A stretch of DNA of 64,000 nt from a virus: positions 64,001 through 128,000 of IMG/VR virus record IMGVR_UViG_3300044825_001821; one strand, written 5' to 3'. The stretch's first letter is position 1. The number at the start of each line of letters is the position of its first letter. The translations under genes were made by a program, and so were the position numbers. The notes under the pieces are model-generated. The model saw nothing but the letters and a program-made list of their open reading frames with translations. It made no database searches and was not told where the DNA came from. Of the stretch, positions 35,105 through 52,549 are shown piece by piece.

Positions 35105-35344
35105 ATGGGATACGTGAAGATACAAGATCGTGATCATTTGTATCGTGATATAAACAGTGGTGCTATATTAAATACAAACAAAGCGGAGTTTGAACAATAT
35201 TATGCCGACCGAGAACTTGACATGCGAAAATTGCAGGAGAGACAGGCATTGGAAAACAAAGTAAATAAATTAGAAGAAGATATTGGTCAAATAAAAAATC
35301 TTCTTCAAGAACTAGTACAAATGAGAAACTCAAATGGCAATTAA
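35105..35344 (+). CDS. Small coiled-coil hypothetical protein
   Basis: LYRD..SGAILN followed by a C-terminal coiled coil; AAGG RBS; overlaps the next gene. Confidence 0.65.
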   Translation: MGYVKIQDRDHLYRDINSGAILNTNKAEFEQYYADRELDMRKLQERQALENKVNKLEEDIGQIKNLLQELVQMRNSNGN

Positions 35345-36239
35345 TCAACTATCAACAGGAAACACATTTCAAGAGTGGGTGACAACCACTAGCTTGTTGG
35401 TTACTACCGCAAATAGCTTGACTGATGGTATAAACGGACAACCATTTATTGCCAACACTGCAATTTGGGTTCAGGGTGCAAACGCTTCATTTAACGTTCG
35501 AACTCTTGCTAACATTAATGTTCTTCAAGCGAACACTGCAAACATCTCTAATATCTCACTATCCAGTGGTAATATTAGTGGCAATGGTAGCATAACGTTT
35601 GGTCAAAATCTGACAGTAACATATGCAAACATTGTACAAAACATTGCAAGTGCAAACGTTACTTCAAATCTTTCGGTTGGCGGTGATGCTTTCATATATG
35701 GTAATTTGACTATCAGTGGAAATGTAACTTTAGATTCTATTGGCTTTGATGATCTGCAAGTCAATGGTTCTGCAAATATCACGAACAGTTTATCTGTCTT
35801 TGGTAACTCTGCTTTTACAAATGCCATCTCTGCAACGCATTTAGTTTTATCAACTTCGTTCACTGGTGCACCAAACACAGCAATTTATGCTTACATTACA
35901 GAGGTGCGTACCATTGCGATTGGTGCTGGATTGTATGCCAACGGTGCTTTCATTCATGGAAACTCTGCACACAGACATGCAAACGCAGGGTTCATTCATG
36001 CTAATGCATCCTTCATTCATGCAAACGCAGGATTCATACATGCCAATGCTGCATTCTTGCAGGCTAACACACCCAGTTTTACTGCTAACTCCGCTGCTTT
36101 GTATGCCAATGGTGCATTCCTGCAAGCCAATACACCTAGTCACACTGCTAACTCCGCTGCTTTGTATGCCAATGGAGCCTTTGTGGCGGCGAATGTGGCA
36201 CAAGATCAGTCCGTGGCGTTTTCAATAGCACTGGGATAA
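35334..36239 (+). CDS. Fibre-like protein with AN heptads, ending ...AFSIALG
   Basis: N-terminal NTFQEW...T; beta-repeat middle; HANAGF/ANTPS heptads. Confidence 0.65.
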   Translation: MAINQLSTGNTFQEWVTTTSLLVTTANSLTDGINGQPFIANTAIWVQGANASFNVRTLANINVLQANTANISNISLSSGNISGNGSITFGQNLTVTYANIVQNIASANVTSNLSVGGDAFIYGNLTISGNVTLDSIGFDDLQVNGSANITNSLSVFGNSAFTNAISATHLVLSTSFTGAPNTAIYAYITEVRTIAIGAGLYANGAFIHGNSAHRHANAGFIHANASFIHANAGFIHANAAFLQANTPSFTANSAALYANGAFLQANTPSHTANSAALYANGAFVAANVAQDQSVAFSIALG

Positions 36240-36262
36240 ATAAATAAAAAACAGAGGATTTA

Positions 36263-36598
36263 ATGGCTAATAACTTTAAAAATAACGTTTTGAAAGCGGT
36301 GGGTGGAACAGCACAAAATGCTTACGCTGCTGCCGCTGGTGTGCAGGCTACTGTCATCGGCATGACAATTTCAAATCTTATTTCTACTCCAATATCGGCA
36401 AATGTATTTTTGACTTGTGCAGGCGCCGCTGCTCCGAACGTATATCTAATCAGAGATGCAACGATTGCACCTGGTGGTGCTTTAGTTCCTATTGGCGGAG
36501 ATCAAAAACTAGTATTGGAAGCTGGCGACAAGATTGAAGTGAACACTTCCGTTGCTTCTTCTGCTGACGTTATCGTGTCAGTTCTGGAGATTACCTAA
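36263..36598 (+). CDS. ~110-aa putative fibre adaptor, class A
   Basis: MANNFKN...VIGMTISN...LIRDATI.PG.AL.....KLVLEAGDKI.V...DV.VSVLEIT. Confidence 0.6.
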   Translation: MANNFKNNVLKAVGGTAQNAYAAAAGVQATVIGMTISNLISTPISANVFLTCAGAAAPNVYLIRDATIAPGGALVPIGGDQKLVLEAGDKIEVNTSVASSADVIVSVLEIT

Positions 36599-37242
36599 TG
36601 GCATACATCGGCAACACTCCAGATTTACCTGGCAATTTTGTTCTACTAACGGAAAAATTTTCTGGCACTGGAGCCTGCACACAATTTACGCTGGCTAGAA
36701 ATATAAGTGATGCAAACGTTGTTGTCGTTGTTGTGAATGGTATTGTTCAAACGCCATCTTATTCTTTTAGTGTTACAAATGGATTACTAACCTTCACTGA
36801 AGCACCTTCAGCGGATTATGCTGACAATATTACAGTTACACATCTAGCTTCTGGTATTATCACGTACAATAACATTAATGCTGGACAATTATTACCCGGC
36901 TCTGTAACTGAAACTGCTTTAGCCACAGGTGCGGTAACAGAAACTAAATTGGCCAATTTTGTTATCAAAGCAAATAAAATAGGTGTAAATCAAATCACTG
37001 GTAACTTAATTGCAGCAAATCAAATCACTGGCAATCAAATTGCACAAAATCAAATCACCGGTAACTTAATTGCGGTAAATCAAATCACTGGCAATCAAAT
37101 TGCACAAAATCAAATCACCGGTAACTTAATTGCGGTAAATCAAATCACTGGTAATCTGATAGCAAACAACGCAATCAGTGGAAACAATATTGTATCACCA
37201 CCAGACATCTTCGATGACGCTTTTCTATTTGGCGGAATGTAA
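36598..37242 (+). CDS. MAYIGN-type linker/fibre protein with decapeptide repeats, ending DDAFLFGGM
   Basis: MAYIGNTP, beta-sandwich domain, NQITGN[LQ]IAx repeats. Confidence 0.7.
   Translation: MAYIGNTPDLPGNFVLLTEKFSGTGACTQFTLARNISDANVVVVVVNGIVQTPSYSFSVTNGLLTFTEAPSADYADNITVTHLASGIITYNNINAGQLLPGSVTETALATGAVTETKLANFVIKANKIGVNQITGNLIAANQITGNQIAQNQITGNLIAVNQITGNQIAQNQITGNLIAVNQITGNLIANNAISGNNIVSPPDIFDDAFLFGGM
36988..37167 (+). repeat. Coding 30-bp tandem repeat x6 (60-bp higher-order unit)
   Basis: AATCAAATCAC[TC]GG[TC]AA... units encoding NQITGNLIAA/NQITGNQIAQ/NQITGNLIAV. Confidence 0.9.
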
Positions 37243-37257
37243 AAAAGGAAAAATTAA

Positions 37258-37596
37258 ATGGCAAGAAATTATACAATCTTAGGACAAAGAAATCCATCAG
37301 CAAACGTGTTGACTACACTTTACACTGTGCCGGCGTTAAATTCTGCAATTTTGTCATCAATCACAATTGCCAACTTAGATGAAGCTGCTGCAAATGGTGG
37401 GGCGTTTAGAATCTCAGTGAACACATCAAGTGCTGCTGTTTCAAATGCTAGTTATATTGCATATGGTGTTAATGTACCAGGTCGTGATACAGTTACATTA
37501 ACATTGGGTGTAACATTAAATGCTGGATCAATCGTATCAGTTAATGCTAACAGTTCATTACTTGCTTTTTCTGCATTTGGTACAGAAATTTATTAA
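37258..37596 (+). CDS. ~110-aa putative fibre adaptor, class B
   Basis: MARNYTILGQ.NP.A...TTLYTVPA...AILSSITIAN...YIAY...VP..DT.TLTLGVTL...FSAFGTEI. Confidence 0.6.
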   Translation: MARNYTILGQRNPSANVLTTLYTVPALNSAILSSITIANLDEAAANGGAFRISVNTSSAAVSNASYIAYGVNVPGRDTVTLTLGVTLNAGSIVSVNANSSLLAFSAFGTEIY

Positions 37597-37607
37597 TGGT
37601 ATTTTGA

Positions 37608-39308
37608 ATGAGTCAACGTAGACTTCAAATAAATCCTCTTTCTACTAAGAAAGCGGCACACTCTATCAGAGTTTTACTTTCTTTAAGTAGAATGTCTGTA
37701 CCACGTGTTGGAGGCAGAGCGAATGCCGTTGTTTCTATTTTTAATTCCTCAAGTAATTGGACTGCTCCTTCTGGTGTTTTAGTAATTCAATATGTAATTA
37801 TTGCTGGTGGCGGTGGCGGTAATTATGGTGGTGGAGGAGCTGGAGGATTTAGAACTGCTACCGGCCTTTCTGTAACACCAGGAACACAATACACTATTTC
37901 TGTTGGTGGCGGTGGAGGTGGGGCTACAAAAGGAACAAACAGTGGATTCTTTATTACATCTTCTGGAGCCGGTGGAACTTGGGCAACTGGTGGTGGAGAA
38001 GGTGGCGCTAACGCTCCCGGTGGTGCGGGTGGTGCTGGTGGATCTGGTGGAGGTGGTGCCTTTAGTGGTTATGGCGGTCCATATGGAGGTGGAGCCGGCA
38101 ATCAAGGGGGATATTCACCATCTGAAGGAAACAATGGTGGAAATGGTGGGGGCTATCCGGGTGGTACAAACGTAGGCGGTGGCGGTGGCGGTGGTGCTGG
38201 TGGCACAGGATTTAATGGAATGAGACCAGCAGTGCCTTGGGCAGGTAATGGTGGCATTGGAATATATTCTTCTATAACAGGCTCAAATGTAGGTTATGCT
38301 GGTGGTGGGGGTGGATATACATGGGCACCCACTTTAGGTGTTGGTGGTTATGGTGGAAATGGTCAAACAGATTATGGTGGCGCAAATGGCGCTATATCAC
38401 ATCCAACTTTACCTGTTGCTGCAAGCACTCCACCTGCAAATAAAGGTGGTGGTGGTGGTGGTGGCGACACTGGAGCAACGGCACTATCTTCTGGCGGTTC
38501 TGGTGTGGTTATCCTACGTTATGAAATTACTCAAAGGGTTGTATATACGTCAGCATCTACGTTTACAGTTCCTACTGGTGTGACATCAATTGACTATTTA
38601 ATTGTTGCTGGTGGAGGAGGGGCAGGAAGTGGTGCTGGTGGAGCTGGTGGTTTTAGAACTGGAGTAGGATTACCTGTAACACCAGGAACATCATATTCTA
38701 TTGCTGTGGGTGGAGGTGGTGGTGCTTCCTCTTCTGGCTCAAATAGTGGATTTTTCATCACCCCTTCCGGAACTGGTGGAACTTGGGCAACTGGTGGTGG
38801 TAGAGGTGGATTTAATGCGCCAGGTAATGCCGGACAACCTGGAGGTTCTGGTGGCGGTGGCGCTTGTGATGGGTTTGGTGGTCCTAGAGCTGGTGGTTCC
38901 GGAAACGCTGGTGGTTACACGCCATCAGAAGGAAATAATGGCGGCGCTGGTAATTTCTTCAGTCCAGCGGGTACGGGCTCTGGTGGCGGAGGTGGTGCAG
39001 GTAGCGTTGGATTGGCCGCCAGTACGCCTGGTACCGCTTTTGGTGGTAATGGTGGAATAGGAATATTCTCATCAATCTCTGGTGCTAATGTTGGTTATGC
39101 TGGTGGCGGTGGTGGATTAGTTACACCAAGTCACCCTGCTAATTTCGGTGTTGCTCATCCACAATTCGGTGGTGGTAACGGCGGATTTCTTTCCGGCACA
39201 CCCGGAGCAAGTGGCACTGCAAACAGAGGTGGTGGTGCTGGTGGAGGTGATCCTGCTGCGGGTTCTGGCGGATCGGGGATTGTAATTATAACTTATGATA
39301 TACCTTAG
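37608..39308 (+). CDS. Glycine-rich putative adhesin with two tandem Gly-rich domains
   Basis: Two copies of F.SS..[WF]T.P.GV..I.Y.I.AGGG...GGAGGFRT..GL.VTPGT.Y.I.VGGGG...GGSG.VI. Confidence 0.75.
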   Translation: MSQRRLQINPLSTKKAAHSIRVLLSLSRMSVPRVGGRANAVVSIFNSSSNWTAPSGVLVIQYVIIAGGGGGNYGGGGAGGFRTATGLSVTPGTQYTISVGGGGGGATKGTNSGFFITSSGAGGTWATGGGEGGANAPGGAGGAGGSGGGGAFSGYGGPYGGGAGNQGGYSPSEGNNGGNGGGYPGGTNVGGGGGGGAGGTGFNGMRPAVPWAGNGGIGIYSSITGSNVGYAGGGGGYTWAPTLGVGGYGGNGQTDYGGANGAISHPTLPVAASTPPANKGGGGGGGDTGATALSSGGSGVVILRYEITQRVVYTSASTFTVPTGVTSIDYLIVAGGGGAGSGAGGAGGFRTGVGLPVTPGTSYSIAVGGGGGASSSGSNSGFFITPSGTGGTWATGGGRGGFNAPGNAGQPGGSGGGGACDGFGGPRAGGSGNAGGYTPSEGNNGGAGNFFSPAGTGSGGGGGAGSVGLAASTPGTAFGGNGGIGIFSSISGANVGYAGGGGGLVTPSHPANFGVAHPQFGGGNGGFLSGTPGASGTANRGGGAGGGDPAAGSGGSGIVIITYDIP

Positions 39309-39353: not shown

Positions 39354-39773
39354 ATGAATAACGAAGATATTAGCTATGCACAGTATTTGGTAGGCAATAA
39401 CAACAAACTTGTATGTGGTATTGACACTGCAATTAAAGCACTCAGACCACACGCTCGTTATGACATGTCTGCTTCTGGTGGGCATTTCGTTTTCACTCGT
39501 TGGGAAGATGAGACAGATTCAAAGCCCCCAACGAAAGATGAAATTTTTGCAGAACTAGAATATCAGAATAAGTTTGTTGACTATTGGCAACACTTTATTG
39601 ATCGTGCTACACACTATCCTGATATTGTAGTTTTAATTAATAGTTTATGGGAAGGTATTGATTCTGGTGCTATACCAGGTAAAGAGACTAATTTTTATAA
39701 ACTAATTAAAGAAGTTAATGATGAGTTTCCAAGACCAGAAGGCGATCCACCAGTAAGACCGACACACGAATAA
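39354..39773 (+). CDS. Hypothetical protein, possible fibre assembly chaperone
   Basis: AIKALRP.A.Y...RWED....PPTKDEI.AEL; follows a Gly-rich adhesin; has its own late promoter. Confidence 0.5.
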   Translation: MNNEDISYAQYLVGNNNKLVCGIDTAIKALRPHARYDMSASGGHFVFTRWEDETDSKPPTKDEIFAELEYQNKFVDYWQHFIDRATHYPDIVVLINSLWEGIDSGAIPGKETNFYKLIKEVNDEFPRPEGDPPVRPTHE

Positions 39774-39784: not shown

Positions 39785-40267
39785 ATGGCATACATCGGTA
39801 ATACAGTCACATCGGTTAGATTTCTTTCTGATATTTTTAGTGGCACAGGCTCACAAACTACTTTTGTTTTAACACGTGCTCCTTTTTCAAATGAATCGAT
39901 TGCTGTTTTTATTTCTGGAAGTTATCAAAAACCAGGTATTGATTATACTACCGATGGTTTAAATCTGAATTTTACTTCGGCTCCAGCATCTGGCACAAAT
40001 AATATTTCTGTGCTTCATTTGGGCAATGGTTATATGGCCACTCAGGTTCCCTCTGATAGGTCTGTAACTACGATTAAAATCGCAGAAGGAGCGATCACCG
40101 GTAATTTGATGACAATTAATAGTATACGTGGTAACAATATTGTAGCGGGTACAATCACCGGTAACTTAGTCGCATTAAATTCTATTTCATCGAATAATTT
40201 TTCGTCAGAAGCAAACACAAAAATTTTCAGTTCGGGCATTATAAGTTCGATCATATTCGGAGGTTAA
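39785..40267 (+). CDS. MAYIGN-type linker protein ending ISSIIFGG
   Basis: Paralogue of 36598-37242: MAYIGNT, FSGTG..T.F.L.R, FT.AP, degenerate ITGNL decapeptides. Confidence 0.7.
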   Translation: MAYIGNTVTSVRFLSDIFSGTGSQTTFVLTRAPFSNESIAVFISGSYQKPGIDYTTDGLNLNFTSAPASGTNNISVLHLGNGYMATQVPSDRSVTTIKIAEGAITGNLMTINSIRGNNIVAGTITGNLVALNSISSNNFSSEANTKIFSSGIISSIIFGG

Positions 40268-40270
40268 TAA

Positions 40271-40624
40271 ATGGCAGCGCCAAACATTGTTAGTGTAACA
40301 GATATTAGAGGTAAAAGTAACGTATCGAATGTATCCAGTGGAGGTTCTCCTATTGTGGGTAATGCCAGTGGTAGTAATAAAGTTTTCAAAGTAAATGCTT
40401 TAATGGTTTCAAATATAGACTCCGCTAATAGCATATTAATCAACGTAAACTTTGTTCGTGCATCGGCCAATTACTCTATTGCACGAAATATGACTGTTCC
40501 GTATGGAGCAACTATTGAAATCATTAGTAAATCAATATATTTGGAAGAAGGTGATAGTATACATCTACAGTCTAGTGTAAATGCTACTGCTCAAAGTGTT
40601 TGTAGCTACGAGGAGATAAGTTAA
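40271..40624 (+). CDS. ~110-aa putative fibre adaptor, class C
   Basis: MAAPNIVSVT.I.GK...KVFKVN.LMVSNID...IA....VP..AT......SIYLEEGDSI....CSYEEIS. Confidence 0.6.
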   Translation: MAAPNIVSVTDIRGKSNVSNVSSGGSPIVGNASGSNKVFKVNALMVSNIDSANSILINVNFVRASANYSIARNMTVPYGATIEIISKSIYLEEGDSIHLQSSVNATAQSVCSYEEIS

Positions 40625-41547
40625 TGTTTCGTCGTTTTAATGGTGGAATCTTGGGAAAATATAATGGTTCTACTGCAACAAGATCAAATGGATTTTTTTC
40701 TTTAAGTGATATTCAAGCATTCTCCGAAGGAGGTCTTTGGACGGGTTCCCGCATTCCGCCCGACTTAGAAATAATAATAGTTGCTGGTGGTGGTGGAGCC
40801 AGTGGTATGGGTGGTGCTGGAGCGGGTGGATTGTTGTATTATGGCGCAGAAATACCAAAAGTTGCTAATGATACTGCAAGACCTCTTACTGGTAACACTA
40901 CTGTTGTCGTTCAAATTGGTGCTGGAGGTACAGGGGGTACTGGTGTTGGACAAGGTTCGGCTTCAAGTGTGAATATCAGTGGCACTTTACTTACTGCAAC
41001 TGGTGGTGGGTATGGCGGCGTAAGTAGTCCAGCCGGTCGTGAAGGAGGTCCAGGAGGTTCTGGTGGTGGCGGCGGAGAGTTCGGAAGCGATGGAGGAGGT
41101 GGTGCGGGAACACCTGGGCAAGGAAATAATGGTGGTAATGGAAAATATCTGTCAGGAAACGGTGGTGGAGGTGGTGGAGCGGGAGCAGTAGGACAAAGTG
41201 GACCAGTAACTTTTCCACTTGGCGCTGGTGGTGGCATAGGCTTAGCTTATACAATTAGTGGAGCAAACGTATATTATGCTGGAGGTGGTGCTGGAGGAGG
41301 ACCCGGTCCCACTTTTGTAAACCCCGGTTCAAATGGTGGTGGCGGCAAACCTGGATTTACGGGTTCTATTAATACTGGAGGTGGTGCTGGAGCATATGGA
41401 AGTCAAGGTGGTTCTGGAATCGTTGTGATGAGACACAATCGTGCATATAAAACAGGCACAGCGAATTCAAATGGGCAACCTTCAATTACGTTGTCTGGAG
41501 ACTACAGAGTTTACACTTTTACCGCTTCGGGTTCTTTAGTTTTCTGA
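40624..41547 (+). CDS. Glycine-rich putative adhesin (single domain)
   Basis: IIVAGGGG...GAGAGGLLY...GGSGGGGG...YYAGGG...GGSGIVV.R...VYTFTASGSLVF. Confidence 0.75.
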   Translation: MFRRFNGGILGKYNGSTATRSNGFFSLSDIQAFSEGGLWTGSRIPPDLEIIIVAGGGGASGMGGAGAGGLLYYGAEIPKVANDTARPLTGNTTVVVQIGAGGTGGTGVGQGSASSVNISGTLLTATGGGYGGVSSPAGREGGPGGSGGGGGEFGSDGGGGAGTPGQGNNGGNGKYLSGNGGGGGGAGAVGQSGPVTFPLGAGGGIGLAYTISGANVYYAGGGAGGGPGPTFVNPGSNGGGGKPGFTGSINTGGGAGAYGSQGGSGIVVMRHNRAYKTGTANSNGQPSITLSGDYRVYTFTASGSLVF

Positions 41548-41590: not shown

Positions 41591-41980
41591 ATGGCACATT
41601 TTGCACAACTTGATGAAAATAATGTAGTAACTCAAGTCATTGTTGTGTCCAACAATGAATTACTTGACGCTAACGGTCAAGAAAGTGAGGAGTTAGGCAT
41701 TGCTTTCTGCCAAAGATTGTTTGGTGGTAATTGGAAACAAACATCATACAATCATAATATGAGAAAGCGTTATGCAGGAATTGGATACTCATACAACGCA
41801 GAACTTGATGCATTTGTTCCTCCTAAACCATATGCTTCATGGGTGTTAAATAACACAGAAGCAAATTGGGAAGCACCTGTGCCATTGCCTTCAGATGCAG
41901 GTCAAGGTGAGCCTCCTAAAAATTATATTTGGAATGAAGAAACAACGTCTTGGGATTTATCAGAAACAACAGGACTATAA
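41591..41980 (+). CDS. Phage hypothetical protein (MAHFA-type), fibre-associated
   Basis: MAHFAQLDENNVVTQVIVV...WKQTSYN...RKRYAGIGY.Y....DAFVPPKPY.SW.L....WEAPVP.P; GGGAG RBS. Confidence 0.65.
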   Translation: MAHFAQLDENNVVTQVIVVSNNELLDANGQESEELGIAFCQRLFGGNWKQTSYNHNMRKRYAGIGYSYNAELDAFVPPKPYASWVLNNTEANWEAPVPLPSDAGQGEPPKNYIWNEETTSWDLSETTGL

Positions 41981-42643: not shown

Positions 42644-45600
42644 ATGGCAAATATTTCCCTACAATTAAAACATTCTCTAGCCACTAATACACCGCCTTCA
42701 TTAAATGTTGGTGAACCTGCTTATTCATATAGTAGCAATACATTATTCATTGGAAATCCTACGGGCGATGGCGCTATTGCTATTGGTGGTTATGATGATC
42801 ATACTCGTTTAATATCTTCATATGCAACGCTAAACTTGGCATACGATCATGCCAATGCTGCATATATTCGTGCGAATAATTCTTTTAATGCAAATGGCGG
42901 TGGTACGATAGCAGGCGATCTAACTGTTCAAGGTAACTTGAATATTGTTGGTGGAACAATCGGCGCTAATGTACCCATCGTATTAATTGGCGATAATATT
43001 ATTTCGCTGAATGCTTCAATTGGTCAGTCGAATACACCGACGATGAATGCAGGTATTGAAATTGATCGTGGTGCTCAGGCAAATGTTTATATACTTTGGA
43101 ATGAAGTTGATAATAAATGGACTTTCACAAACGATGGAACAAACTATGATAGTTTGGGTGGAGAGTCTGGATCAACATATGCTAATGGTGCATTCGTACA
43201 AGCTAATGCAGCATTCAGTCAAGTTAATGTAACATTTGCACATGCCAACGCCGCTTTCTTAAAGGCCAATACACCAAGTTATGCTGCAAACTCAGCAGGC
43301 TCTTATGCCAATGCTGCATTTATTCAGGCAAATACAAATTTTGTTCAAGTAAATTTAGCGTTCGCACATGCCAATGCCGCATTCTTACAGGCCAATACAC
43401 CTAGCTATGCATCTAATTCTGCTGCATCGTATGCTAATTCAGCTTTTGCTGCGGCAAACTCAGCAGGCTCTTATGCTAACTCTGCTTTTTTAAGAGCCAA
43501 TACACCAAGTTATACTTCAAACGCAGCATCAACATATGCCAATGGCGCATTTATACAAGCTAACGCTGCCTTTGCTCATGCTAATGCTGCTTATGTACAG
43601 GCAAACACACCAAGTCATGTAGCAAACTCTGCTGCTTCTTATGCCAATGCTGCATTTATTGCAGCAAATGCTTCATTTATTCATGTCAATGCTGCATTCT
43701 TAAAAGCCAATACACCAAGTTATACATCTAATTCGGCTGCTTCTTATGCCAATTCTGCTTTCTTGCAGGCGAACACGCCGAGTCATGTGGCAAACTCTGC
43801 GGCATCGTATGCCAATGCTGCATTTTTAAAAGCTAACACACCTAGCTATACATCAAACTCCGCTGCTTCTTATGCCAATGCGGCATTTGCAGTTGCAAAC
43901 TCGGCTGCATCATATGCCAACGCTGCATTTTTACAGGCTAATACGCCAAGCTATACATCGAACTCTGCAAGTGTTTACGCTAACGGTTCGTTTATTCAAG
44001 CTAATGCTGCGTTTTTACAAGCAAACACACCAAGTTACACTGCAAACTCTGCTGCTTCTTATGCCAATGCTGCATTTATTCAAGCTAACGATGCTGTTGC
44101 TTTGTGGACTGGTGCGTATAATCATGCGAATGCATCTTATGTACACGCCAATGCGGCATATCAAAGTCAAAATACAACAGGCACATACGCCAACGCAGCT
44201 TTTGTTCGTGCAAACAATGCGCTAGATGCAAACAATGGTGGTGTGATAACAGGTAGTTTGACGATCACACAGAACCTTACTGTCACTGGAAATGTTTATG
44301 TTTCTGGTAATGCATTCACCGTTAATGCAGGAACATTAACATCAAATGACTCTGTTATTATTTTAGCAGATGGTAATTATTATTCTGATATAAAAGATAT
44401 TGGTTTTGCCGGTCATTATAATGATGGTTCAACCAATGCAAAAACTGGATTACTCAGAGATTCAACAACAAGAGAGTGGTTCTTATTTAAGAATTACACA
44501 CCTGAAATTGGTACAAATAATAATATCAACATTAATGATTCTTCTTTTGAAGTTGATACACTCAGTGCCAATTTAAAATCAACTTATATTTTAATCAAAA
44601 ATGTAGATATTCTACCAAGAACAAATATCATTTTTGATTTAACAAATGCAGCATTTAGACACGCCAACTCTGGATTTGTACATTCAAACGCTGCATTTGT
44701 TCACGCCAATGCCGCATATCAAAGTCAAAATGCAACTGGCAGTTATGCAAACACGGGATATGTACACGCCAACGCAGCATTTATTCATGCAAATTCATCA
44801 TATGAATCTCAGAATGCAACAGGTACTTACGCCAATGCCGCATTCTTGCAAGCAAACACACCTAGTTACACTGCTAATTCGGCAGCATTATATGCCAATG
44901 GTTCGTTTATTCAATCCAATGCGGCGTTTGATCATGCTAATGCAGCATATCAAAGTCAAAATACGACAGGTGTATATGCCAACGCAGCGTTTATACATGC
45001 CAATGCCGCATTTATAAAAACTAATGCATCATTTGATCATGCCAATTCTGCATATCAATCACAAAATGCAACAGGCACTTACGCAAACTCAGCATTTCTA
45101 CATGCCAATGCTGGATTTATACACGCCAATAGTGCTTTTGTTCATGCCAATGCAGCATTTGATCATTCAAATGCTGGATATAATCAAGCCAATACTGGAA
45201 CAACATTAGCACAGGCGGCATTTGATAATTCAAACACCAAGTTTAATTCTACTGGTGGAACGATTTCTGGTAATGTAACAGTTCAAAGTAATCTTACTGT
45301 TCTAGGTAATGTTACATTCGTAGGTAATGTCACATCGGTATTAGTTACTGGTAATAGTGGTCAATTCTTTGGCTACGCATCGAATGGTCACAACGCACTG
45401 TACGCAGGTATTCCAACTGGTTATGATTATCAGCCACAAACAGTTTTCCAAGCATCTGCAAATTATGATGGTTACTCACAGATAAACATTCAGAATATCA
45501 ATACTGGACCTGATGCATCCGGTGACTATGTTGCTACTGCTGATAATGGTAACGAAAATGATACTTACATTGACATGGGCATCGGCAGTAGTCAACATGC

Positions 45601-47986
45601 CGATCCTGACTTTACATTAGTTGGACCAAATGATGGTTACTTGTATACACACGGCAACACCTCAACTGGTGGTGGTGATCTTGTAGTTGGTACATTCTTA
45701 CCACAGAATGATGTAGTATTTGCAGCAGGTGGTATGAATATTGAAAATGAGCAGATGCGTATCATTGGCTCAAGCAACACTATTAATATTCGTGCAAATG
45801 TAGATATAAGTCTTTCAAAAAATGTTTTCTTAGGACCAGTTGTCAATGTTCACATTACTGGTGGAACTAATGATGATTACATCAGAACTGATGGTGCTGG
45901 TAACTTAACATTTGCAAATCTTACTTCTGCAAATGTAATTAAAGTATTATACAATACATCTAATGCTTCATATATTCAAGCCAATGCAGCATTTGATCAT
46001 GCTAACGCCTCATTTGCTGCTGCTAATAATGTATTCCCACAAGTTCAGCCAGCATTCAACACCGCCAATTTAGCATTTGCACATTCCAATGCAGCATATA
46101 ATCGTGCAAATAATTCTGTAGACGCAAACAATGGTGGCACAATTACTGGTGATTTAACAATCACTAAAAATCTGTTTGTTGGTAATGTGTTTGTAGCTGG
46201 ACAGACATTCAGTGTTAATGCTGGTACTTTAGTTTCAAATGATTCTGTCATTATTTTAGCCGAAGGAAATTATTTCTCCGATTTAACTGATATTGGTTTT
46301 GCTGCACATTATAATGATGGTACAAACGCACACTCAGGTCTGATTCGTGACTCTGTAACAAAAGAGTGGTATCTATTCAAAGGATATACACCTGAGATTG
46401 GCACAAACAATAATATTGATATTAATGATGCATCGTTCACAATTGATACTCTGAATGCAAATCTAAACTCAACATATGTTTTAGCAAAAGGTATTGATCT
46501 ATTACCAAGAACAAATATTATTTTTGGTCTTACAAATTCTTCTTTTGCTCATGCAAATGCTGGATTTGATCATGCCAATGCAGCATTTATTTCGGCTAAC
46601 AATGTATTTCCACAGGTTCAGCCAGCGTTCAATACGGCTAACTTAGCATTTGCACACTCAAATGCTGCATTCACACATGCAAATTCATCATATGAATCTC
46701 AGAATGCAACTGGCAGTTATGCTAACTCTGCATTTGCACACGCCAACGCAGCATTTATTTCGGCTAACAATGTATTCCCACAAGTTCAGCCAGCATTCAA
46801 TACGGCCAATTTAGCGTTTGCTCATTCAAATTCTTCGTTTGATCATGCCAATGCTGCATTCTTGCAGGCAAACACACCTAGCTACACTGCAAACTCTGCA
46901 AGTGTTTATGCCAATGCTGCATTCTTACAGGCTAACACACCTAGCTACACCGCAAACTCTTCGGCATTGTATGCCAATGCTGCGTTTATACATGCCAATT
47001 CGTCATATGAATCACAGAATGCTACTGGTAGTTATGCCAACAGTGCTTTTGTACATGCCAATGCTGCGTTTAATTCTGCTAACAATGTATTCCCGCAAGT
47101 GCAACCGGCATTTAACACTGCTAATGCTGCATTTGATCATGCGAACGCATCTTACATTCAAGCTAATGCCGCATTCATTCGTGCGAATAATTCATTAGAT
47201 GCAAACAATGGTGGAACAATTACTGCAAATGTTGTAATTAATGCGAATCTACAAGCAGCTAATGTTACAACAAATGCGTACATTCAATTTGCGGATGGCA
47301 CAAGACAGTTTACTGCAAATGCAAATCCAGCAAATGTTTCACTGAAAACATTTACAACAACATCAAATGGCACTACGCCAACGTTTGCATTAGGGTTTAC
47401 TCCTGCTGGTTCGAATGCTGCTTTAGTTGTTTCAATTGGCGGTGTTATACAAACCGATGGTGTTGATTATTCAATACAACCAGGTAATTCATCAATTTCA
47501 TTTGATGGCATCCCACCAGCGGGTGAAATTGTTAGAGTTACATGTTTGGAAAATGTAGTTCTTTTACCAAATCCAAACGTTACTGTATCGGTGTATGAAA
47601 CTACTGCAAATGGAAATGTTAGCACGTTTGCTTTACCGTTCTATCCAATTTCACGTGAAGCCTTAACTGTAACAATTGATGGCATTGTGCAACCAATTTC
47701 AATGTACACGGTTGATACTTCTGCTAACACAGTTACATTGGATGACACACCACTAAACGGTGAGTTGGTTCGTGTTGCAACTTTCTATACGGCAGTGAAT
47801 CCATATGCGGTATTGCCGAACACAGTGACATTTGATGCATTGGCTCCTGGTGTTAGAAGTTCAATTAATACATCATTTGCAGCAGCAAATTCGGCCGGCT
47901 CATATGCCAATTCGGCATTCAATAAAGCAAATACAGCAGCAACAACAGGAAAGGCAATTGCAATGTCGATTGTATTTGGAGGCTAA
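42644..47986 (+). CDS. Long tail-fibre-like protein with extensive AN-heptad coiled coils, ending KAIAMSIVFGG
   Basis: 1780 aa; N-terminal LQLKHS....PPSL.VGEPAYS....LFIG; dozens of heptads; duplicated ~145-aa globular module; two C-terminal beta-sandwich domains. Confidence 0.8.
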   Translation: MANISLQLKHSLATNTPPSLNVGEPAYSYSSNTLFIGNPTGDGAIAIGGYDDHTRLISSYATLNLAYDHANAAYIRANNSFNANGGGTIAGDLTVQGNLNIVGGTIGANVPIVLIGDNIISLNASIGQSNTPTMNAGIEIDRGAQANVYILWNEVDNKWTFTNDGTNYDSLGGESGSTYANGAFVQANAAFSQVNVTFAHANAAFLKANTPSYAANSAGSYANAAFIQANTNFVQVNLAFAHANAAFLQANTPSYASNSAASYANSAFAAANSAGSYANSAFLRANTPSYTSNAASTYANGAFIQANAAFAHANAAYVQANTPSHVANSAASYANAAFIAANASFIHVNAAFLKANTPSYTSNSAASYANSAFLQANTPSHVANSAASYANAAFLKANTPSYTSNSAASYANAAFAVANSAASYANAAFLQANTPSYTSNSASVYANGSFIQANAAFLQANTPSYTANSAASYANAAFIQANDAVALWTGAYNHANASYVHANAAYQSQNTTGTYANAAFVRANNALDANNGGVITGSLTITQNLTVTGNVYVSGNAFTVNAGTLTSNDSVIILADGNYYSDIKDIGFAGHYNDGSTNAKTGLLRDSTTREWFLFKNYTPEIGTNNNININDSSFEVDTLSANLKSTYILIKNVDILPRTNIIFDLTNAAFRHANSGFVHSNAAFVHANAAYQSQNATGSYANTGYVHANAAFIHANSSYESQNATGTYANAAFLQANTPSYTANSAALYANGSFIQSNAAFDHANAAYQSQNTTGVYANAAFIHANAAFIKTNASFDHANSAYQSQNATGTYANSAFLHANAGFIHANSAFVHANAAFDHSNAGYNQANTGTTLAQAAFDNSNTKFNSTGGTISGNVTVQSNLTVLGNVTFVGNVTSVLVTGNSGQFFGYASNGHNALYAGIPTGYDYQPQTVFQASANYDGYSQINIQNINTGPDASGDYVATADNGNENDTYIDMGIGSSQHADPDFTLVGPNDGYLYTHGNTSTGGGDLVVGTFLPQNDVVFAAGGMNIENEQMRIIGSSNTINIRANVDISLSKNVFLGPVVNVHITGGTNDDYIRTDGAGNLTFANLTSANVIKVLYNTSNASYIQANAAFDHANASFAAANNVFPQVQPAFNTANLAFAHSNAAYNRANNSVDANNGGTITGDLTITKNLFVGNVFVAGQTFSVNAGTLVSNDSVIILAEGNYFSDLTDIGFAAHYNDGTNAHSGLIRDSVTKEWYLFKGYTPEIGTNNNIDINDASFTIDTLNANLNSTYVLAKGIDLLPRTNIIFGLTNSSFAHANAGFDHANAAFISANNVFPQVQPAFNTANLAFAHSNAAFTHANSSYESQNATGSYANSAFAHANAAFISANNVFPQVQPAFNTANLAFAHSNSSFDHANAAFLQANTPSYTANSASVYANAAFLQANTPSYTANSSALYANAAFIHANSSYESQNATGSYANSAFVHANAAFNSANNVFPQVQPAFNTANAAFDHANASYIQANAAFIRANNSLDANNGGTITANVVINANLQAANVTTNAYIQFADGTRQFTANANPANVSLKTFTTTSNGTTPTFALGFTPAGSNAALVVSIGGVIQTDGVDYSIQPGNSSISFDGIPPAGEIVRVTCLENVVLLPNPNVTVSVYETTANGNVSTFALPFYPISREALTVTIDGIVQPISMYTVDTSANTVTLDDTPLNGELVRVATFYTAVNPYAVLPNTVTFDALAPGVRSSINTSFAAANSAGSYANSAFNKANTAATTGKAIAMSIVFGG
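43175..47190 (+). repeat. 21-bp-period (heptad) imperfect coding repeats
   Basis: Recurrent GCCAATGCTGCATT / GCAAACACACCAAG units; ANNVFPQVQPAFNTAN occurs four times. Confidence 0.85.
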
Positions 47987-47989
47987 TTC

Positions 47990-48412
47990 ATGACACAGAA
48001 AATTACAAGTGGTAGAATAGCCAACAGTTCTATTACGGTAAACAGCTTCTCCACTAATTTTGGTGGCTATGCATATGACTTCGATGATATTTCTTATATC
48101 ACCGATGGTGTGACGACTATCTTTCCTTTAACATATAACACATCGAATGTTTCTGTATCAAGTCCTTGGAATTTAATTATATCAATTAATGGTCTTTTAC
48201 AGTCCGCTTTTGCAAATACGCAAGAAGTTCTTTGGATGAGTCACGTTAAAAACTCAGCAAAAGGATACACATTAAATGATGATGGTCGTGTTCTTTTTGC
48301 CGATCCGCCTCCAGCGGGTTCTGATGTTATGATTCGACTTGTGCCTGGGACACCAGCACAAAATACCAAGATTTATCCATTCAAAGCAACCGATATCTTC
48401 TTGGGTTACTAA
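47990..48412 (+). CDS. Small virion protein with beta-sandwich domain
   Basis: DG.TT.F.L...IISINGLLQ...YT......F..PP.AGS; ends TDIFLGY. Confidence 0.6.
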   Translation: MTQKITSGRIANSSITVNSFSTNFGGYAYDFDDISYITDGVTTIFPLTYNTSNVSVSSPWNLIISINGLLQSAFANTQEVLWMSHVKNSAKGYTLNDDGRVLFADPPPAGSDVMIRLVPGTPAQNTKIYPFKATDIFLGY

Positions 48413-48414
48413 TT

Positions 48415-48470: not shown

Positions 48471-51400
48471 ATGGCTAGAAAAGTAATCGTAGACACATAT
48501 TATTCGTTCACACCTTCGTCAAGAACGATTGTGTTTAATGAGGTGATTCAACGTGAACGTTTTGTTCTGATTACAAACGTCACTACGAATCAGGTAATTT
48601 ACAATTTTTCAGACCCAAATCTGAAATTAACTTCTCATTCGGTATCACAAAACGCAACAAGCGGTTCGGCGACAACCACAATTGTATTGCAATATAATAC
48701 AGCAGCAATGTCATCTACCGACAAACTTCAAGTTGTGATTGATGAATACGCCGAAAAGTTTGAGCCTGATGAACTCTATACTGATCCGGTAAATAAATTC
48801 CGTGTGTCTCAGCCACAGTCGATGATTGATACCGACTTTGAATATTCAACTCAAGCCACAAAATGGGAAACGTTATCTTTAGTAAATAACAGAGCCTTTG
48901 CTTATGCGAACGTAGCGGCAAACTCTGACGTTTCTATTGGTGGTCCAATCAATGTAACATCAATTACTGTAAACTCTAACTCAAGTTTTGTTACAGTATA
49001 TACTGCAAACCCACCAGCTGTAAACACTCCTATTTTTGTGACTGATAGTGCATGGGGTCCCGCTGACGGTACATATGTTGTTGATGCTGTTTTTGGTACA
49101 ACTGCATTTAGATACACAACAAAACAAAGATATCAAGCAACACTAGGCGTAACTGCTGGTTTGAATATTAACATTCCGGGAGTAACACAAGTTGCTAATG
49201 GTTCTATCTTTACACGTTCAAATATTGCTTTATCAAATATTAATTTTACTGGTGCATTTGCAAATGGTATCGTAAGAACAACTCAACCACATGGTATCTC
49301 AATTGGTAATGAGATCATTCTTCAGGGTACAACAGCAGCAACATCAGGTGCGCCTAATGGAGCATTTACTGTAACTGGCGTTTATTCTAATACAGAGTTT
49401 CGTATCGATGCTAATGTAGCACCAGTAAGTTCATCTGGTATTGGTTCTGGTGGTTTTGCTAATCTATTCTCTTCAGGTCGTTCAACTGTAATTCATCGTG
49501 CTTATGATGGTGGTGTTGAGTTTAGCACCGCAGCAGAAGGACATAACAATCAATTGATTCGTCAGACACGCCGTTACTTCCGTTATCAATCTGGTAAGGG
49601 TATTCAAATGTCAACTGGCACTTTGATGAAGCCTTCAATTCGTTTGGATAGTGTGACAAGTTCTGGTGCGGTTGTAACATTAAAAACAAAGGAACCCCAC
49701 TTTGTAGATACAAACACATCAATTACAATTACCGGTTGTAATGAAACTGCATATAACGGAACGTTTAATGTCTTAGAAGTTTTAGACCCATACACTCTTC
49801 GTTATGTTGCTAACAGTACACCTTCTGCAACTCCAGCAACTGGTTTGTATTTCTTGTCAGTTAATAACTGGTATGGTGCATCTAATCGTGTTGGCATGTT
49901 TGATGATCAAAATGGTATTTTCTTTGAGTATGATGGACAACAACTATATGCAGTTCGTCGTTCTTCAACAAGACAATTATCAGGATTCATCAGCGCCAAC
50001 ACTGCCAATACACAAATTGATGGTGTTTCTGTGAATGGTGTAACAACCAAGTTCTCTTCTGAACTTGATGTTGGTGATTACATTGTAATCAAAGGTATGT
50101 CATATCGTGTTATTGAAATTAACTCTGATACCAGACTGCATGTTTCACCAGCATATAGAGGTAACACACAAATTCTACAAGCTGTTGCTGCCAAAACAAT
50201 TGACTTCAAGATTCCACAGTCTCAATGGAATTTAGATCGTTGTGATGGCACAGGTCCTTCAGGATTTAATCTTGATCTTCGTAAGATGCAGATGTTCTAC
50301 CTAGATTACTCTTGGTATGGTGCAGGTTTCGTTCGTTGGGGCTTCAGAGCAACAGATGGTAATATTGTTTATTGTCATAAGATGGTAAACAATAATGTAA
50401 ACTATGAAGCGTACATGCGTTCTGGTAACTTACCAGGCCGCTATGAAACAAATACATTTGCACCTAAAACAAAAGTTCAAGCGACGATTCAATCTGGAGA
50501 CACTTCAATCAATGTGGCTAATGCTTCAGCATTTCCTACTGTTGGAACGCTGTGGCTCACAAATGGCGCAGGTTTAAGTGAGTTTGTAAACTACAACGGT
50601 GTAACTAACAATTCACCTACAGGTTGGACATTTAATAATCTTATTCGTGGACAACAAGGTAATAATATTAACTGTATCATGTCAACATCAAATTCAACAT
50701 TGAATTTGGTTTCTGGACAGGCAACAACAGGAATTCAAATTGGTATGTTTGTACAAAGCGCAAACATTCCACAAGTTGCTCAAGTTGTTAGTATTAATCC
50801 AAACGTTTCAGTACAACTTTCTCAAGCACCTGGTATCTCTGGAACAGGAGTTGTAACATTTATTCCTATGGGTAATGTTGCACAAACGTTTACATATAGT
50901 GCTACTTCACCAACATACGCTGAGTTACATGCGCCTGGATATGCACCACGTATTGCACATTGGGGCACTTCAGTTATTATGGATGGTCGTTATGATGACG
51001 ATAAATCATTTGTGTTTACTCAAGGTATGAGAGGTGGGTTATCTGTGCCTGCTGGTCAACGTATGGCACTACAGAGTTTCCGTGTTTCACCTTCAGTGAA
51101 TAACGGTGTTCCTGGTTCCGCTTTAGGTGATCGTGAAGTTGTCAATCGTATGCAAATGGTTCTTCGACAACTTGATTTGTTATCAGGTGGTACTTTCTTG
51201 ATTGAAGTTGTTCTAAATGGTTCTACAGCAAATGCTGCACCAGTTTGGCAAAACGTTGGCGGTTCAAGTCTTGCTCAGTACGTCAATCATGCTGTAAACA
51301 CAAGAATTGAAGGTGGTGAAGTTATTTACGGCTTCTTCACCAACTCCGCTGGTGGTTCGACTAACTTGACTACAACATCCATGGATCTACCTCTGGTTCG

Positions 51401-51557
51401 TGATCTTGGTAATAGTATTCTTGGTGGAGGTACTAATGATCCACGAAGTGGATTTTATCCAGACGGTCCTGATATTGTGACAATTGTTGCACGTAATGTT
51501 GGTACTGCGGCAGCATCAGTGTTCTCACGACTATCATGGACAGAAGCACAAGCATAA
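48471..51557 (+). CDS. Large virion structural protein
   Basis: 1028 aa, beta-rich; DPVNKFRVSQPQSMIDTDFEY, RQTRRYFRYQSGKG, MFYLDYSWYGAG.VRWG; GGAG RBS. Confidence 0.7.
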   Translation: MARKVIVDTYYSFTPSSRTIVFNEVIQRERFVLITNVTTNQVIYNFSDPNLKLTSHSVSQNATSGSATTTIVLQYNTAAMSSTDKLQVVIDEYAEKFEPDELYTDPVNKFRVSQPQSMIDTDFEYSTQATKWETLSLVNNRAFAYANVAANSDVSIGGPINVTSITVNSNSSFVTVYTANPPAVNTPIFVTDSAWGPADGTYVVDAVFGTTAFRYTTKQRYQATLGVTAGLNINIPGVTQVANGSIFTRSNIALSNINFTGAFANGIVRTTQPHGISIGNEIILQGTTAATSGAPNGAFTVTGVYSNTEFRIDANVAPVSSSGIGSGGFANLFSSGRSTVIHRAYDGGVEFSTAAEGHNNQLIRQTRRYFRYQSGKGIQMSTGTLMKPSIRLDSVTSSGAVVTLKTKEPHFVDTNTSITITGCNETAYNGTFNVLEVLDPYTLRYVANSTPSATPATGLYFLSVNNWYGASNRVGMFDDQNGIFFEYDGQQLYAVRRSSTRQLSGFISANTANTQIDGVSVNGVTTKFSSELDVGDYIVIKGMSYRVIEINSDTRLHVSPAYRGNTQILQAVAAKTIDFKIPQSQWNLDRCDGTGPSGFNLDLRKMQMFYLDYSWYGAGFVRWGFRATDGNIVYCHKMVNNNVNYEAYMRSGNLPGRYETNTFAPKTKVQATIQSGDTSINVANASAFPTVGTLWLTNGAGLSEFVNYNGVTNNSPTGWTFNNLIRGQQGNNINCIMSTSNSTLNLVSGQATTGIQIGMFVQSANIPQVAQVVSINPNVSVQLSQAPGISGTGVVTFIPMGNVAQTFTYSATSPTYAELHAPGYAPRIAHWGTSVIMDGRYDDDKSFVFTQGMRGGLSVPAGQRMALQSFRVSPSVNNGVPGSALGDREVVNRMQMVLRQLDLLSGGTFLIEVVLNGSTANAAPVWQNVGGSSLAQYVNHAVNTRIEGGEVIYGFFTNSAGGSTNLTTTSMDLPLVRDLGNSILGGGTNDPRSGFYPDGPDIVTIVARNVGTAAASVFSRLSWTEAQA

Positions 51558-52199
51558 ATGCAAACTGTTACTACATTACCAATACTGCAAACTGTCAGTG
51601 ATGTCACACAACACTATATCAGTTTGCAGCCTGCAATATCAGGAAGAACAGCGGCAGAGTACGTCAATCGTAATCTGTCGTTTAATCCCGCTTCAAATAC
51701 ATTAAATATTGCGGTCAATGTAAATTTTTTACCAAATTCAATTTCCGGTTTGGCAATAGCAGACTCAGGAATAATTTCTTCTAAAATTGCGCCTTTAACT
51801 AGATTAATTGAGCAAGCTAAAATTATTCCAGGTCAATTAAGTGGTAACATTAACATCGATGTTTTAGAATCTTCAGTATACTATTTGACGCAATATCCTA
51901 CGGGAGCTTTAACTTTTAATCTTCGTGGTAATACAAATTATACATTAGATAGACTTTTGAATCCTGGACAATCTGTGTCAACAGTTTTTATGATCACACA
52001 GAATGTTACTCAGCAAGTTGCAAACGTTTCTGTTGATGGTAATTTTCAAACAGCAAATATAAGATATGGTTCAAACACCAAACCAACTTCGACCAGTATT
52101 TCTAGAGAAGTCATAGATGTTTATTCTTTTGTTACAATGAAACTTGCAACCAATTCTTATATAATATTACAAACACAGTCATCTTATGGTGTGGGATAA
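51558..52199 (+). CDS. Putative fibre/virion protein
   Basis: C-terminal domain INIDV...SVYY...TFNLRG...GQSVS...DVYSF...K.A...Y.IL. Confidence 0.55.
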   Translation: MQTVTTLPILQTVSDVTQHYISLQPAISGRTAAEYVNRNLSFNPASNTLNIAVNVNFLPNSISGLAIADSGIISSKIAPLTRLIEQAKIIPGQLSGNINIDVLESSVYYLTQYPTGALTFNLRGNTNYTLDRLLNPGQSVSTVFMITQNVTQQVANVSVDGNFQTANIRYGSNTKPTSTSISREVIDVYSFVTMKLATNSYIILQTQSSYGVG

Positions 52200-52549
52200 T
52201 GATACAGAAAGTTCGTTCGTCTTTAATAGAACCAACAAATATTACAGGCAATCTGATTGCTCAAAATGCCGTTTCTGGTAACAATATTGTTTCTAACGCT
52301 ATTCGTGGAAACAATATTGTGGCAAGCACAATCACTGGTAATTTAATCGCAACAAATCAAATCACTGGCAATCAAATTGCACAAAATCAAATCACCGGTA
52401 ATTTAATTGCGGTAAATCAAATCACTGGTAACTTAATTGCGACAAATCAAATCACTGGCAATCTGATAGCAAACAACGCAATCAGTGGAAACAATATTGT
52501 TTCTCCTCCTGATATTTTTGATGATGCTTTCTTATTTGGTGGAATGTAA
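52199..52549 (+). CDS. Short decapeptide-repeat protein ending DDAFLFGGM
   Basis: 116 aa; C-terminal part nearly identical to that of 36598-37242. Confidence 0.75.
   Translation: MIQKVRSSLIEPTNITGNLIAQNAVSGNNIVSNAIRGNNIVASTITGNLIATNQITGNQIAQNQITGNLIAVNQITGNLIATNQITGNLIANNAISGNNIVSPPDIFDDAFLFGGM
52355..52474 (+). repeat. Coding 30-bp tandem repeat x4; dispersed copy of 36988-37167
   Basis: Same AATCAAATCAC(T/C)GG units. Confidence 0.9.

Follow-up and report, generated by a model that had tools for sequence, protein, structure and literature searches.

A widespread family of small predicted jelly-roll proteins as probable class-coded connectors between tail-fibre modules of an uncultured T4-like phage

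How are the separately encoded modules of a tail fibre joined to one another, when several of them end in one of a few short hydrophobic peptides and small proteins of similar size are encoded directly behind them? This question is raised by the fibre locus in a stretch of 64,000 nucleotides (nt), bases 64001-128000 of the 172,439-bp virus record IMGVR_UViG_3300044825_001821, which has terminal repeats; the whole stretch, with a G+C content of ~37%, is called the window below. We named the terminal peptides "plugs" and the small proteins "adaptors", and the analysis makes it probable that the adaptors are structural, class-coded connectors making three-part joints between tail-fibre modules. 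The gene order and the profile matches identify the putative source phage as a T4-like myovirus: a phrog_358 giant protein (28793-35095) is followed by the fibre genes, and these by neck genes similar to gp13 (at 52552) and gp14 (at 53502). Since the identity of the gp14-like protein to its counterparts in T4-like cyanophages does not exceed 40%, the phage is an uncultured, distant relative of these. A nucleotide search of the fibre locus against cultured phages returned a single 122-nt match only.

Plugs and adaptors of the fibre locus

A preliminary description of the window had proposed that five fibre or linker proteins end in short peptides of three classes, and the translations confirm all five: AFSIALG (class A) at the gene end 36239, DDAFLFGGM (class B) at 37242 and 52549, and SIIFGG and SIVFGG (class C) at 40267 and 47986, respectively. 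A motif scan of all open reading frames (ORFs) of the whole 172,439-bp genome revealed no sixth ORF with such an end. The parts of the locus that bear on the joint are the following (lengths in amino acids, aa; E, expectation value).

35334..36239, + strand: proximal segment of the fibre, 301 aa, with plug A at its end (SVAFSIALG, about 36210-36236; translation)
36263..36598, + strand: adaptor A, 111 aa, a single predicted jelly-roll protein (phrog_1276, E 1.2e-8; model)
36598..37242, + strand: linker 1, 214 aa, ending in plug B (last 16 aa, 37192-37239; tail-fibre PHROGs 18673, 21412 and 892)
37258..37596, + strand: adaptor B, 112 aa (phrog_1276, E 6.9e-6; family hidden Markov model, HMM, E 1e-35; tree clade B)
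37608..39308, + strand: Gly-rich head B, 566 aa (Gly_rich_2, 89.3 bits; phrog_2295, E 2.6e-60)
39785..40267, + strand: linker 2, 160 aa, with a MAYIGN-type N-terminus and plug C (SSIIFGG; phrog_18673, E 1.4e-11)
40271..40624, + strand: adaptor C, 117 aa (phrog_1276, E 3.4e-4; family HMM, E 4e-25)
40624..41547, + strand: Gly-rich head C, 307 aa (Gly_rich_2, 37.4 bits; model)
42644..47986, + strand: long fibre, 1780 aa, ending in an orphan plug C (GKAIAMSIVFGG; SIVFGG; translation and plug score)
52199..52549, + strand: 116-aa repeat protein with an orphan plug B, directly before the gp13-like neck gene (translation)

The arrangement of these genes is as it had been described. The first gene of each class is directly followed by an adaptor gene, with gaps of 23, 15 and 3 nt for classes A, B and C, respectively. 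Adaptor A is followed by a further linker (linker 1, which consists of a MAYIGN-type N-terminal domain, 10-residue NQITGNxIAx repeats and plug B), and Gly-rich heads come after adaptors B and C, with Gly_rich_2 (PF21722) matches above the Pfam gathering score of 24.3 bits. The remaining two plugs have no adjacent adaptor: the genes behind them (47990-48412 and the gp13-like 52552-53502) are not adaptors, and the 140-aa protein encoded at 47990-48412 gave no match to the adaptor HMM. The genome thus contains one adaptor per class, two carriers of plug B, two carriers of plug C and two YIGN-type linkers.

The three adaptors had been suspected to be distantly related, and this was borne out. All of them match the first 111 positions of phrog_1276, a family annotated as "function unknown", adaptors A and C match each other in BLASTP (E 2e-5), and the profile comparison with an HMM built from relatives gave E 1e-39 for adaptor A, with the values listed above for B and C. 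The genome holds exactly three members of the family, which comprised 9,431 representative clusters at E<=1e-3 in a profile search. Of the best 150 representatives, 117 consist of one domain of ~110 aa, another 26 are tandem doubles fused in one chain, and one or two are triples; the existence of doubles and triples explains why the phrog_1276 profile has 325 positions. Single chains with multiple adaptor domains include P0005 and P0045. Pfam and PHROG scans of the adaptors gave phrog_1276, phrog_26609 and a sub-threshold SWM_repeat match only, with no relation to T4 gp35 or gp36, and no match to chaperone families (Tfa/Caudo_TAP) was found in these scans at E<=0.1 or 0.01.

Pairing of plug and adaptor classes across genomes

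In order to compare the joint across genomes, IMG/VR was searched three times with alignments of each adaptor class, which gave 234 loci, and six cultured-phage loci were added; the comparisons refer to 241 loci. The adaptor HMM detected 362 adaptor ORFs in these loci, 267 of them unique. In a maximum-likelihood tree the unique adaptors fall into clades A, B and C, one additional clade (D) and a small one (E), and each clade has its own C-terminal motif in the upstream gene:

Clade A: A[FLYM][AS]IALG
Clade B: variants, e.g. DDAFLFGGM, PFLLMGA, PFLLMGG and ILMLGGM
Clade C: AIAM[AS]IVFG(G), or IIFGG
Clade D: e.g. ..IMQAY and ..LMGAL (loci L139, L147, L155, L156 and L231)
Clade E: ..IGS and ..IGG (L164 1303 and L165 7779)

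Because clades D and E have plug motifs of their own, there are at least five classes of adaptor, or sockets. The expectation that the plug class predicts the adaptor class met with no exception in the 241 loci: when plugs were scored with leave-one-out position matrices and adaptors were read from the tree listing, the number of cross-class pairs was zero, as it was in a simpler classification of the first 74 loci. A fixed right-anchored position weight matrix (PWM) mixes up class A and class C plugs (optional terminal Gly), and an anchored PWM was used instead. The mean plug similarity is 21.0 within clades and 8.5 between clades, and within clades it is still 19.5 where the preceding 30 shaft residues are less than 20% identical.

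The adjacency of plugs and adaptors is far beyond chance. Among the non-redundant ORFs of the loci, 199 with a plug-like end precede an adaptor and 25 do not, and such ends were found in 1/3,173 opposite-strand control ORFs. As seen from the adaptors, 205 of the 251 unique ones with enough flanking sequence are preceded by an ORF with a hydrophobic or Gly tail (12% for control ORFs), 20 come after a Gly-rich head and 3 after another adaptor; on the other side, the downstream gene starts within 120 nt in 247 of the 251. The pattern is most regular in class A, where 59 of 60 unique adaptors are preceded by an ORF with a hydrophobic or Gly tail and all 60 are followed by a YIGN-type protein. The ORFs upstream of class A adaptors range from 71 to 1880 aa and end in A[FLYM][AS]IALG.

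The joint was also found in cultured phages. In the Roseobacter phage CRP-13 (class A), a tail fibre with the end ALALAIALG is followed by an adaptor and by a protein starting MPYIGNQP, and class A triads occur in Yersinia phage GN1 and Rhizobium phage RHph_I1_18. Pontimonas phage phiPsal1 has class B, and Pelagibacter phage HTVC033P and Synechococcus phage Bellamy have class C followed by a Gly-rich protein of 598-711 aa. In Synechococcus phage S-SCSM1, a long tail fibre with the end PFILALGGN is followed by an adaptor and by a tail fibre protein. On the evidence of these sequences, the joint appears to span several host phyla and phage genomes of 31-229 kb. It is not universal in the Kyanoviridae, since the region before gp13 in the marine T4-like Synechococcus phage S-SM1 (L244, 5486-19165) contains no adaptor or plug. 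That region of S-SM1 encodes homologues of the giant protein and of the 80-aa protein, and then one 1988-aa YadA-domain fibre before gp13. The cassette system would thus replace or supplement a YadA-domain fibre of the S-SM1 type in the lineage studied here.

Some of the homologues carry virion labels. ORF27 of S-SCSM1 matches the adaptor HMM with E 1.5e-12 and is labelled "virion protein" in GenBank; the authors' table gives a "hypothetical" best hit and no predicted function for it, and 45 proteins, 13 of them of unknown function, were detected by mass spectrometry in virions purified in caesium chloride (PMC9602691). Adaptor homologues from S-TIM5 and MaMV-DC in BFVD bear the name "virion structural protein". 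The literature gave nothing usable on virion proteomics of HTVC010P-type phages.

Co-phylogeny alone is weak evidence for a functional pair, because adjacent genes are inherited together. Three results go beyond linkage. The conserved stretch ends ~10 residues from the stop codon while the remaining shaft is exchanged, from which it follows that recombination keeps exactly the peptide and the adaptor together; class A plugs, for example, sit on collagen-like triplets, on Ala/Asn repeats and on the ends of beta-repeats. Moreover, when the last 15 residues were removed, 187 of 201 plug-bearing proteins grouped in a single BLAST cluster, in which all three plug classes are present, so homologous shafts bear different plugs, and the adaptor tracks the plug. 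The window itself provides an example, since linkers 36598 and 39785 have a common MAYIGN domain and repeats, yet one has plug B and adaptor B and the other plug C and adaptor C. The notion of many unrelated shaft families bearing the plugs was abandoned, as single-linkage clustering gave one large cluster across all plug classes instead.

The third result concerns the two copies of plug B in the window (37192-37239 and 52499-52546). Their 16 residues are identical, with 11 synonymous and 0 non-synonymous differences, which points to purifying selection acting on the plug peptide. The ~20 codons of NQITGN repeats before plug B are identical in DNA sequence (37132-37191 and 52439-52498), and the plug itself, unlike the adjoining repeat DNA, is saturated with synonymous changes; this pattern points to a recent gene conversion that halted at plug B.

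Adaptor fold, fused forms and Gly-rich heads

The AlphaFold2 model of adaptor A has nine strands and a mean predicted local distance difference test score (pLDDT) of 93.8. Its best fold matches are the trimeric cement protein of phage KHP40 (7dou_4; Z 10.0, 103 residues aligned), the turret of HFTV1 (8qpg_TD; Z 9.6) and a jelly roll from the triple-jelly-roll turret protein of STIV (4ind_A; Z 9.4), with Ena spore-fibre subunits and TNF/C1q domains at lower ranks. These Z values exceed the search background only moderately and indicate the fold class, not the function. The homologues in BFVD align to the adaptor with template modelling scores of 0.87-0.94, and the adaptor profile has no sequence relative in the PDB at E<=1. 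Across the 267 unique adaptors only Asn38 (98%) and Glu109 (91%) are near-invariant; in adaptor A their codons lie at window positions 36374-36376 and 36587-36589, and both residues are candidates for a recognition site. A Lys-Asn-Glu isopeptide triad was considered and rejected, as some members have Arg or Thr in place of Lys6 and clade C lacks it.

Fusions of the adaptor have a defined polarity. In five of the best 150 representatives (P0002, P0126, P0152, P0153 and P0017) the adaptor is at the N-terminus of a larger protein, the remainder being a DUF7483 head, a Gly-rich part with a further domain, a collagen-like protein or others, and among the top 150 matches there is none with a recognisable fibre in front of the adaptor in one chain. 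A search for fused forms among longer proteins gave four matches, of which P0002 is a real fusion of an adaptor to a DUF7483 head. Two of the four were discarded as chimeric or spurious; one of them, P0001, joins a class B adaptor to an ammonium transporter and is almost certainly an assembly or gene-calling chimera and no real fusion. Additionally, two tandem adaptor genes lie between plug and head in L035 (10049-10725), L036 (10060-10736) and L062 (11161-11902).

Head C was modelled with a pLDDT of 78.6, its first 42 residues being of low confidence, and consists of a TNF-like domain and a glycine-rich domain of receptor-binding type. Residues 43-277 match both chain Q of the tail tip of Bxb1 (9d93_Qb; Z 11.1, with 162 aligned) and the fibre gp24 of Pam3 (7ypx_A; Z 11.0, root-mean-square deviation 3.2, 157 aligned, 24% identity), whereas the next fold matches, including the ALK/LTK glycine-rich domains, have a Z of ~5. 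[quoted passage not shown] By analogy, the heads would be receptor-binding tips, and the low-confidence N-terminal 42 residues of head C fit a docking segment. By sequence, the head profile gave one spurious match only in the PDB, an AAA+ ATPase (E 0.008). The heads that follow class C adaptors (L164-L243) start in at least three ways, ..NGGIIG.., M.[QD]FPS..SA.G and M.HPS.SSADGIW, and there may be sub-classes on the distal side of the joint as well.

Other genes of the locus stand beside these parts:

35105..35344, + strand: 79-aa protein preceding the class A fibre (phrog_473 "virion structural protein", E 2e-21)
39354..39773, + strand: 139-aa protein after head B, candidate head chaperone (PHROGs of unknown function only)
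41591..41980, + strand: 129-aa protein after head C, candidate chaperone (phrog_7759, function unknown, E 7e-48)
47990..48412, + strand: 140-aa protein with a YIGN-type fibre N-terminal domain, ending in DIFLGY (phrog_18673, E 3.7e-6, residues 31-73)
52552-53502: neck protein-like (gp13-like) gene after the orphan plug B (phrog_211)

In related loci, a homologue of 70-87 aa of the 79-aa protein likewise sits before the A fibre. The two small conserved genes behind the heads are candidates for chaperones: the type of the 139-aa protein recurs at the same position in L002, L027 and L034, a relative of the 129-aa protein is found after heads in HTVC033P, L035 and L048, and neither protein has a relative in the PDB by sequence. 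The DIFLGY end of the 140-aa protein is weakly plug-like. It is also worth mentioning that plug-less YIGN linkers occur directly before a Gly-rich protein starting MP... in L002 (8630-10493), L005 (6336-8434) and L027 (6333-8197); an adaptor-less joining of linker and head is therefore present in the same loci.

The proposed joint, its alternatives and its relatives

In the joint that we propose, the proximal module would end in a hydrophobic peptide of 7-10 residues with a free C-terminus, the plug. A connector of the matching class would recognise this peptide, probably as an oligomeric knob on the end of the trimeric fibre, and would carry the next module, which may be either a YIGN-type linker or a glycine-rich receptor-binding head similar to Pam3 gp24. 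Functionally the connector would be part of the distal module, and in some phages it would be the N-terminal domain of that module. Classes A, B and C, with at least D and E elsewhere, may serve as orthogonal sockets, by which shafts and heads could be exchanged by recombination with assembly unbroken. In A-L-A-F-A-I-A-L-G small and large hydrophobic residues alternate, a pattern that would suit an added strand at the edge of a sheet or burial between subunits, and the fold neighbours and the trimeric partners suggest, by analogy, a trimer of the adaptor. We infer from the comparisons above that plug and adaptor are in direct contact, and likewise the stoichiometry of that contact. A predicted complex of three fibre A ends (the final 60 residues) and three adaptor A chains, with alignments for both, scored 0.28 and 0.23 at a mark of 0.32, which was counted neither for nor against the contact.

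Several points weigh against this interpretation. The evidence for a contact between plug and adaptor is comparative throughout. Part of the co-occurrence of adjacent genes is simply the inheritance of linked genes, and because many of the loci belong to freshwater and marine myoviruses that are related to one another, the counts do not represent independent events. The fused doubles and the tandem adaptor genes do not fit a simple homotrimer and would be in line with stacked layers or hetero-oligomers. Coding is less clear on the distal side of the joint, as several kinds of head N-terminus follow class C adaptors. The terminal Gly-Gly of class C is explained in part by an overlapping ribosome-binding site. 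Finally, the "virion protein" label of S-SCSM1 ORF27 was taken as detection in the virion by inference from the GenBank record.

The last point but one is the basis of a very improbable alternative, namely that the terminal peptides are kept for nucleotide reasons such as ribosome binding, translational coupling or read-through. The last two codons of class C are GGAGGx in 46 of ~80 unique loci, 7-9 nt before the next ATG (in the window, the Shine-Dalgarno overlaps lie at 40259-40273, where linker 2 has the codons GGAGGT, and at 47978-47992), and adaptors B and C of the window are in frame with the upstream gene. On the other hand, class C loci with longer spacers have other Gly codons or a single terminal Gly, classes A and B have Shine-Dalgarno sites of their own in the spacer, and spacer lengths vary and are not consistently in frame. 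Overlap with the ribosome-binding site accounts for the optional last Gly of class C and not for the hydrophobic core, which lies upstream of the Gly residues and is the most conserved part, and the conservation of the 16 residues of plug B across 11 synonymous changes largely refutes the idea. It is unlikely, though less so, that the adaptor attaches the distal module and docks elsewhere, the plug being a class-typical fibre terminator or trimerisation nucleus that is co-inherited as a unit. This would agree with contact evidence that is wholly comparative and with adjoining genes, for which linkage alone gives co-phylogeny. It does not account for the recombination that retains exactly the last ~10 residues with the adaptor while the rest of the shaft is swapped, nor for the homologous shafts with different plugs that still have the matching adaptor behind them. 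Moreover, every plug lies at the extreme C-terminus and none is internal, and no fibre was seen fused to an adaptor, which suggests that a free end is needed at the junction.

A further explanation is that the small proteins are class-specific assembly chaperones of the tail fibre, similar to Tfa or Pam3 gp25, which would bind the C-terminal end of the upstream fibre, assist its trimerisation and then be released or stay as a cap, with no part in connecting modules. Such chaperones (those of lambda, Mu and P2, and gp25 of Pam3) resemble the adaptors in being encoded by a small gene directly after a fibre gene and in being specific to the C-terminal part of the fibre, and in phiPsal1 no head gene is annotated after the adaptor, though the ORF scan lists a 298-aa Gly-rich ORF downstream. 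Pam3 gp25 is a small beta-sandwich with a helical trimerisation domain (PMC9608196), unlike the adaptors, which have a nine-strand predicted jelly roll, are fused N-terminally to heads and have homologues labelled as virion proteins, one of them in a virion proteome study (S-SCSM1 ORF27, by inferred detection). The adaptor is tied more tightly to the downstream gene (247/251) than to the upstream plug (205/251), and it occurs as tandem repeats as well as at the N-terminus of head proteins. In L002, L005, L027 and L034, tandem adaptor-head cassettes come after Gly-rich heads with no plug gene in front of them. The lack of a Pfam chaperone match for the adaptors at E<=0.1, and the presence of separate small genes behind the heads (39354 and 41591) that are available as chaperone candidates, also speak against this explanation, which we regard as rather unlikely.

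If the adaptors are connectors, as we consider probable, the wiring of the locus would be as follows: fibre 35334 would bind adaptor A through plug A and thereby a YIGN linker, linker 1 would bind adaptor B and head B through plug B, and linker 2 would bind adaptor C and head C through plug C. The orphan plugs of the 1780-aa fibre (plug C) and of the 116-aa neck-adjacent protein (plug B) may recruit these adaptor-head units in trans, as had been supposed in the preliminary description. The orphan plug C has a PWM score of 16.9, equal to that of plugs preceding class C adaptors, and no adaptor follows it. Heads B and C could each occupy two places, one of them beside the neck genes; T4 encodes its whiskers next to neck genes. 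Orphan plugs recur, with 25 non-redundant cases in other loci, and second YIGN linkers recur in L002, L027, L035, L048 and L062, so the asymmetry between plugs and adaptors is a feature and no accident of this genome. Linker 2 (39785-40267) has no upstream adaptor A of its own and is preceded by a conserved gene for 132-139 aa, and the same holds for second MAYIGN-type linkers in L002 (8630-9586), L027 (9901-10911) and L035 (9698-10045). If the YIGN N-terminus docks on adaptor A, the two linkers would compete for or share the single adaptor A. The products may be branched fibres or alternative, mutually exclusive assemblies, which cannot be told apart from sequence.

The earlier claim that no assembly code of this kind has been described can be kept in part. 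In principle, both joints and docking peptides have been described (the gp35/gp36 hinge of T4, gp38 on gp37, the docking peptides of Klebsiella phages), while the connector family and its pairing rule appear undescribed: a full-text literature search found no description of this joint or of paralogous socket classes within one genome. The long tail fibre of T4 consists of gp34, gp35, gp36 and gp37, with the 372-aa gp35 as hinge connector and the genes in the order of assembly. As in the locus described here, the segments are encoded separately, and a small separate protein lies between two trimeric segments. The adaptors, in contrast, have ~110 aa and no sequence relation to gp35 in the Pfam and PHROG scans, their paralogous classes are matched to short C-terminal peptides, and the joint is reused for several distal modules. 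The tail peptide of the adenovirus fibre docks on the penton base, and the PRD1 spike sits on a jelly-roll penton. In both a short conserved terminal peptide of a trimeric fibre meets a jelly-roll oligomer, a likeness in principle only, since there the peptide is N-terminal and the site is a capsid vertex, and we know of no homology.

In podophages of Klebsiella (KP32, K11 and KP34), a branching domain of the first receptor-binding protein (RBP1) is combined with a conserved docking peptide of the second, RBP2 (PMC13352976). This system shares with the present one a short conserved terminal peptide that docks, exchangeable receptor-binding modules and more than one such module per virion. The polarity differs: in Klebsiella phages an N-terminal peptide of the distal protein docks on a domain inside the proximal protein, whereas here the proximal protein bears the peptide at its C-terminus, and the role of socket would fall to a small protein encoded separately or to the N-terminal domain of the distal protein. 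A Pfam scan found no T4 gp10-like branching domain in 35334-36239, 36598-37242 or 39785-40267. The gp38 of T2 and S16 on the tip of gp37, and Pam3 gp24, likewise place a glycine-rich receptor-binding head at the distal end of a trimeric fibre. There, gp38 is attached by a short helical domain at its own N-terminus, and a helical bundle docks gp24 on the baseplate (PMC9608196); here, a separate predicted jelly-roll protein lies between fibre and head.

A wider reading is that tailed phages of many lineages have in common a standard set of orthogonal connectors, with at least five plug classes and a matching jelly-roll socket for each, a combinatorial assembly code by which the same adaptor-head unit is displayed on several fibres of one virion (the tips of distal fibres, the long fibre and a whisker near the neck) and heads move between morphotypes and hosts by retaining the socket class. 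We regard this as possible, with the chances somewhat below even. To our knowledge, only in T4 and a few coliphages has the assembly of long, multi-part tail fibres been worked out in detail, and that of the abundant aquatic cyanophages, pelagiphages and roseophages is essentially unknown. The joint proposed here would explain why the fibre loci of aquatic phages look like strings of short cassettes, and it would give a functional annotation to many "hypothetical" genes. It would also offer a prediction of which receptor-binding head each fibre carries, and a testable design rule for the exchange of heads in laboratory phages. If the combinatorial code is true, the host range of much of the aquatic virosphere would be readable, and could be rewired, through a 10-residue peptide and a 110-residue protein.

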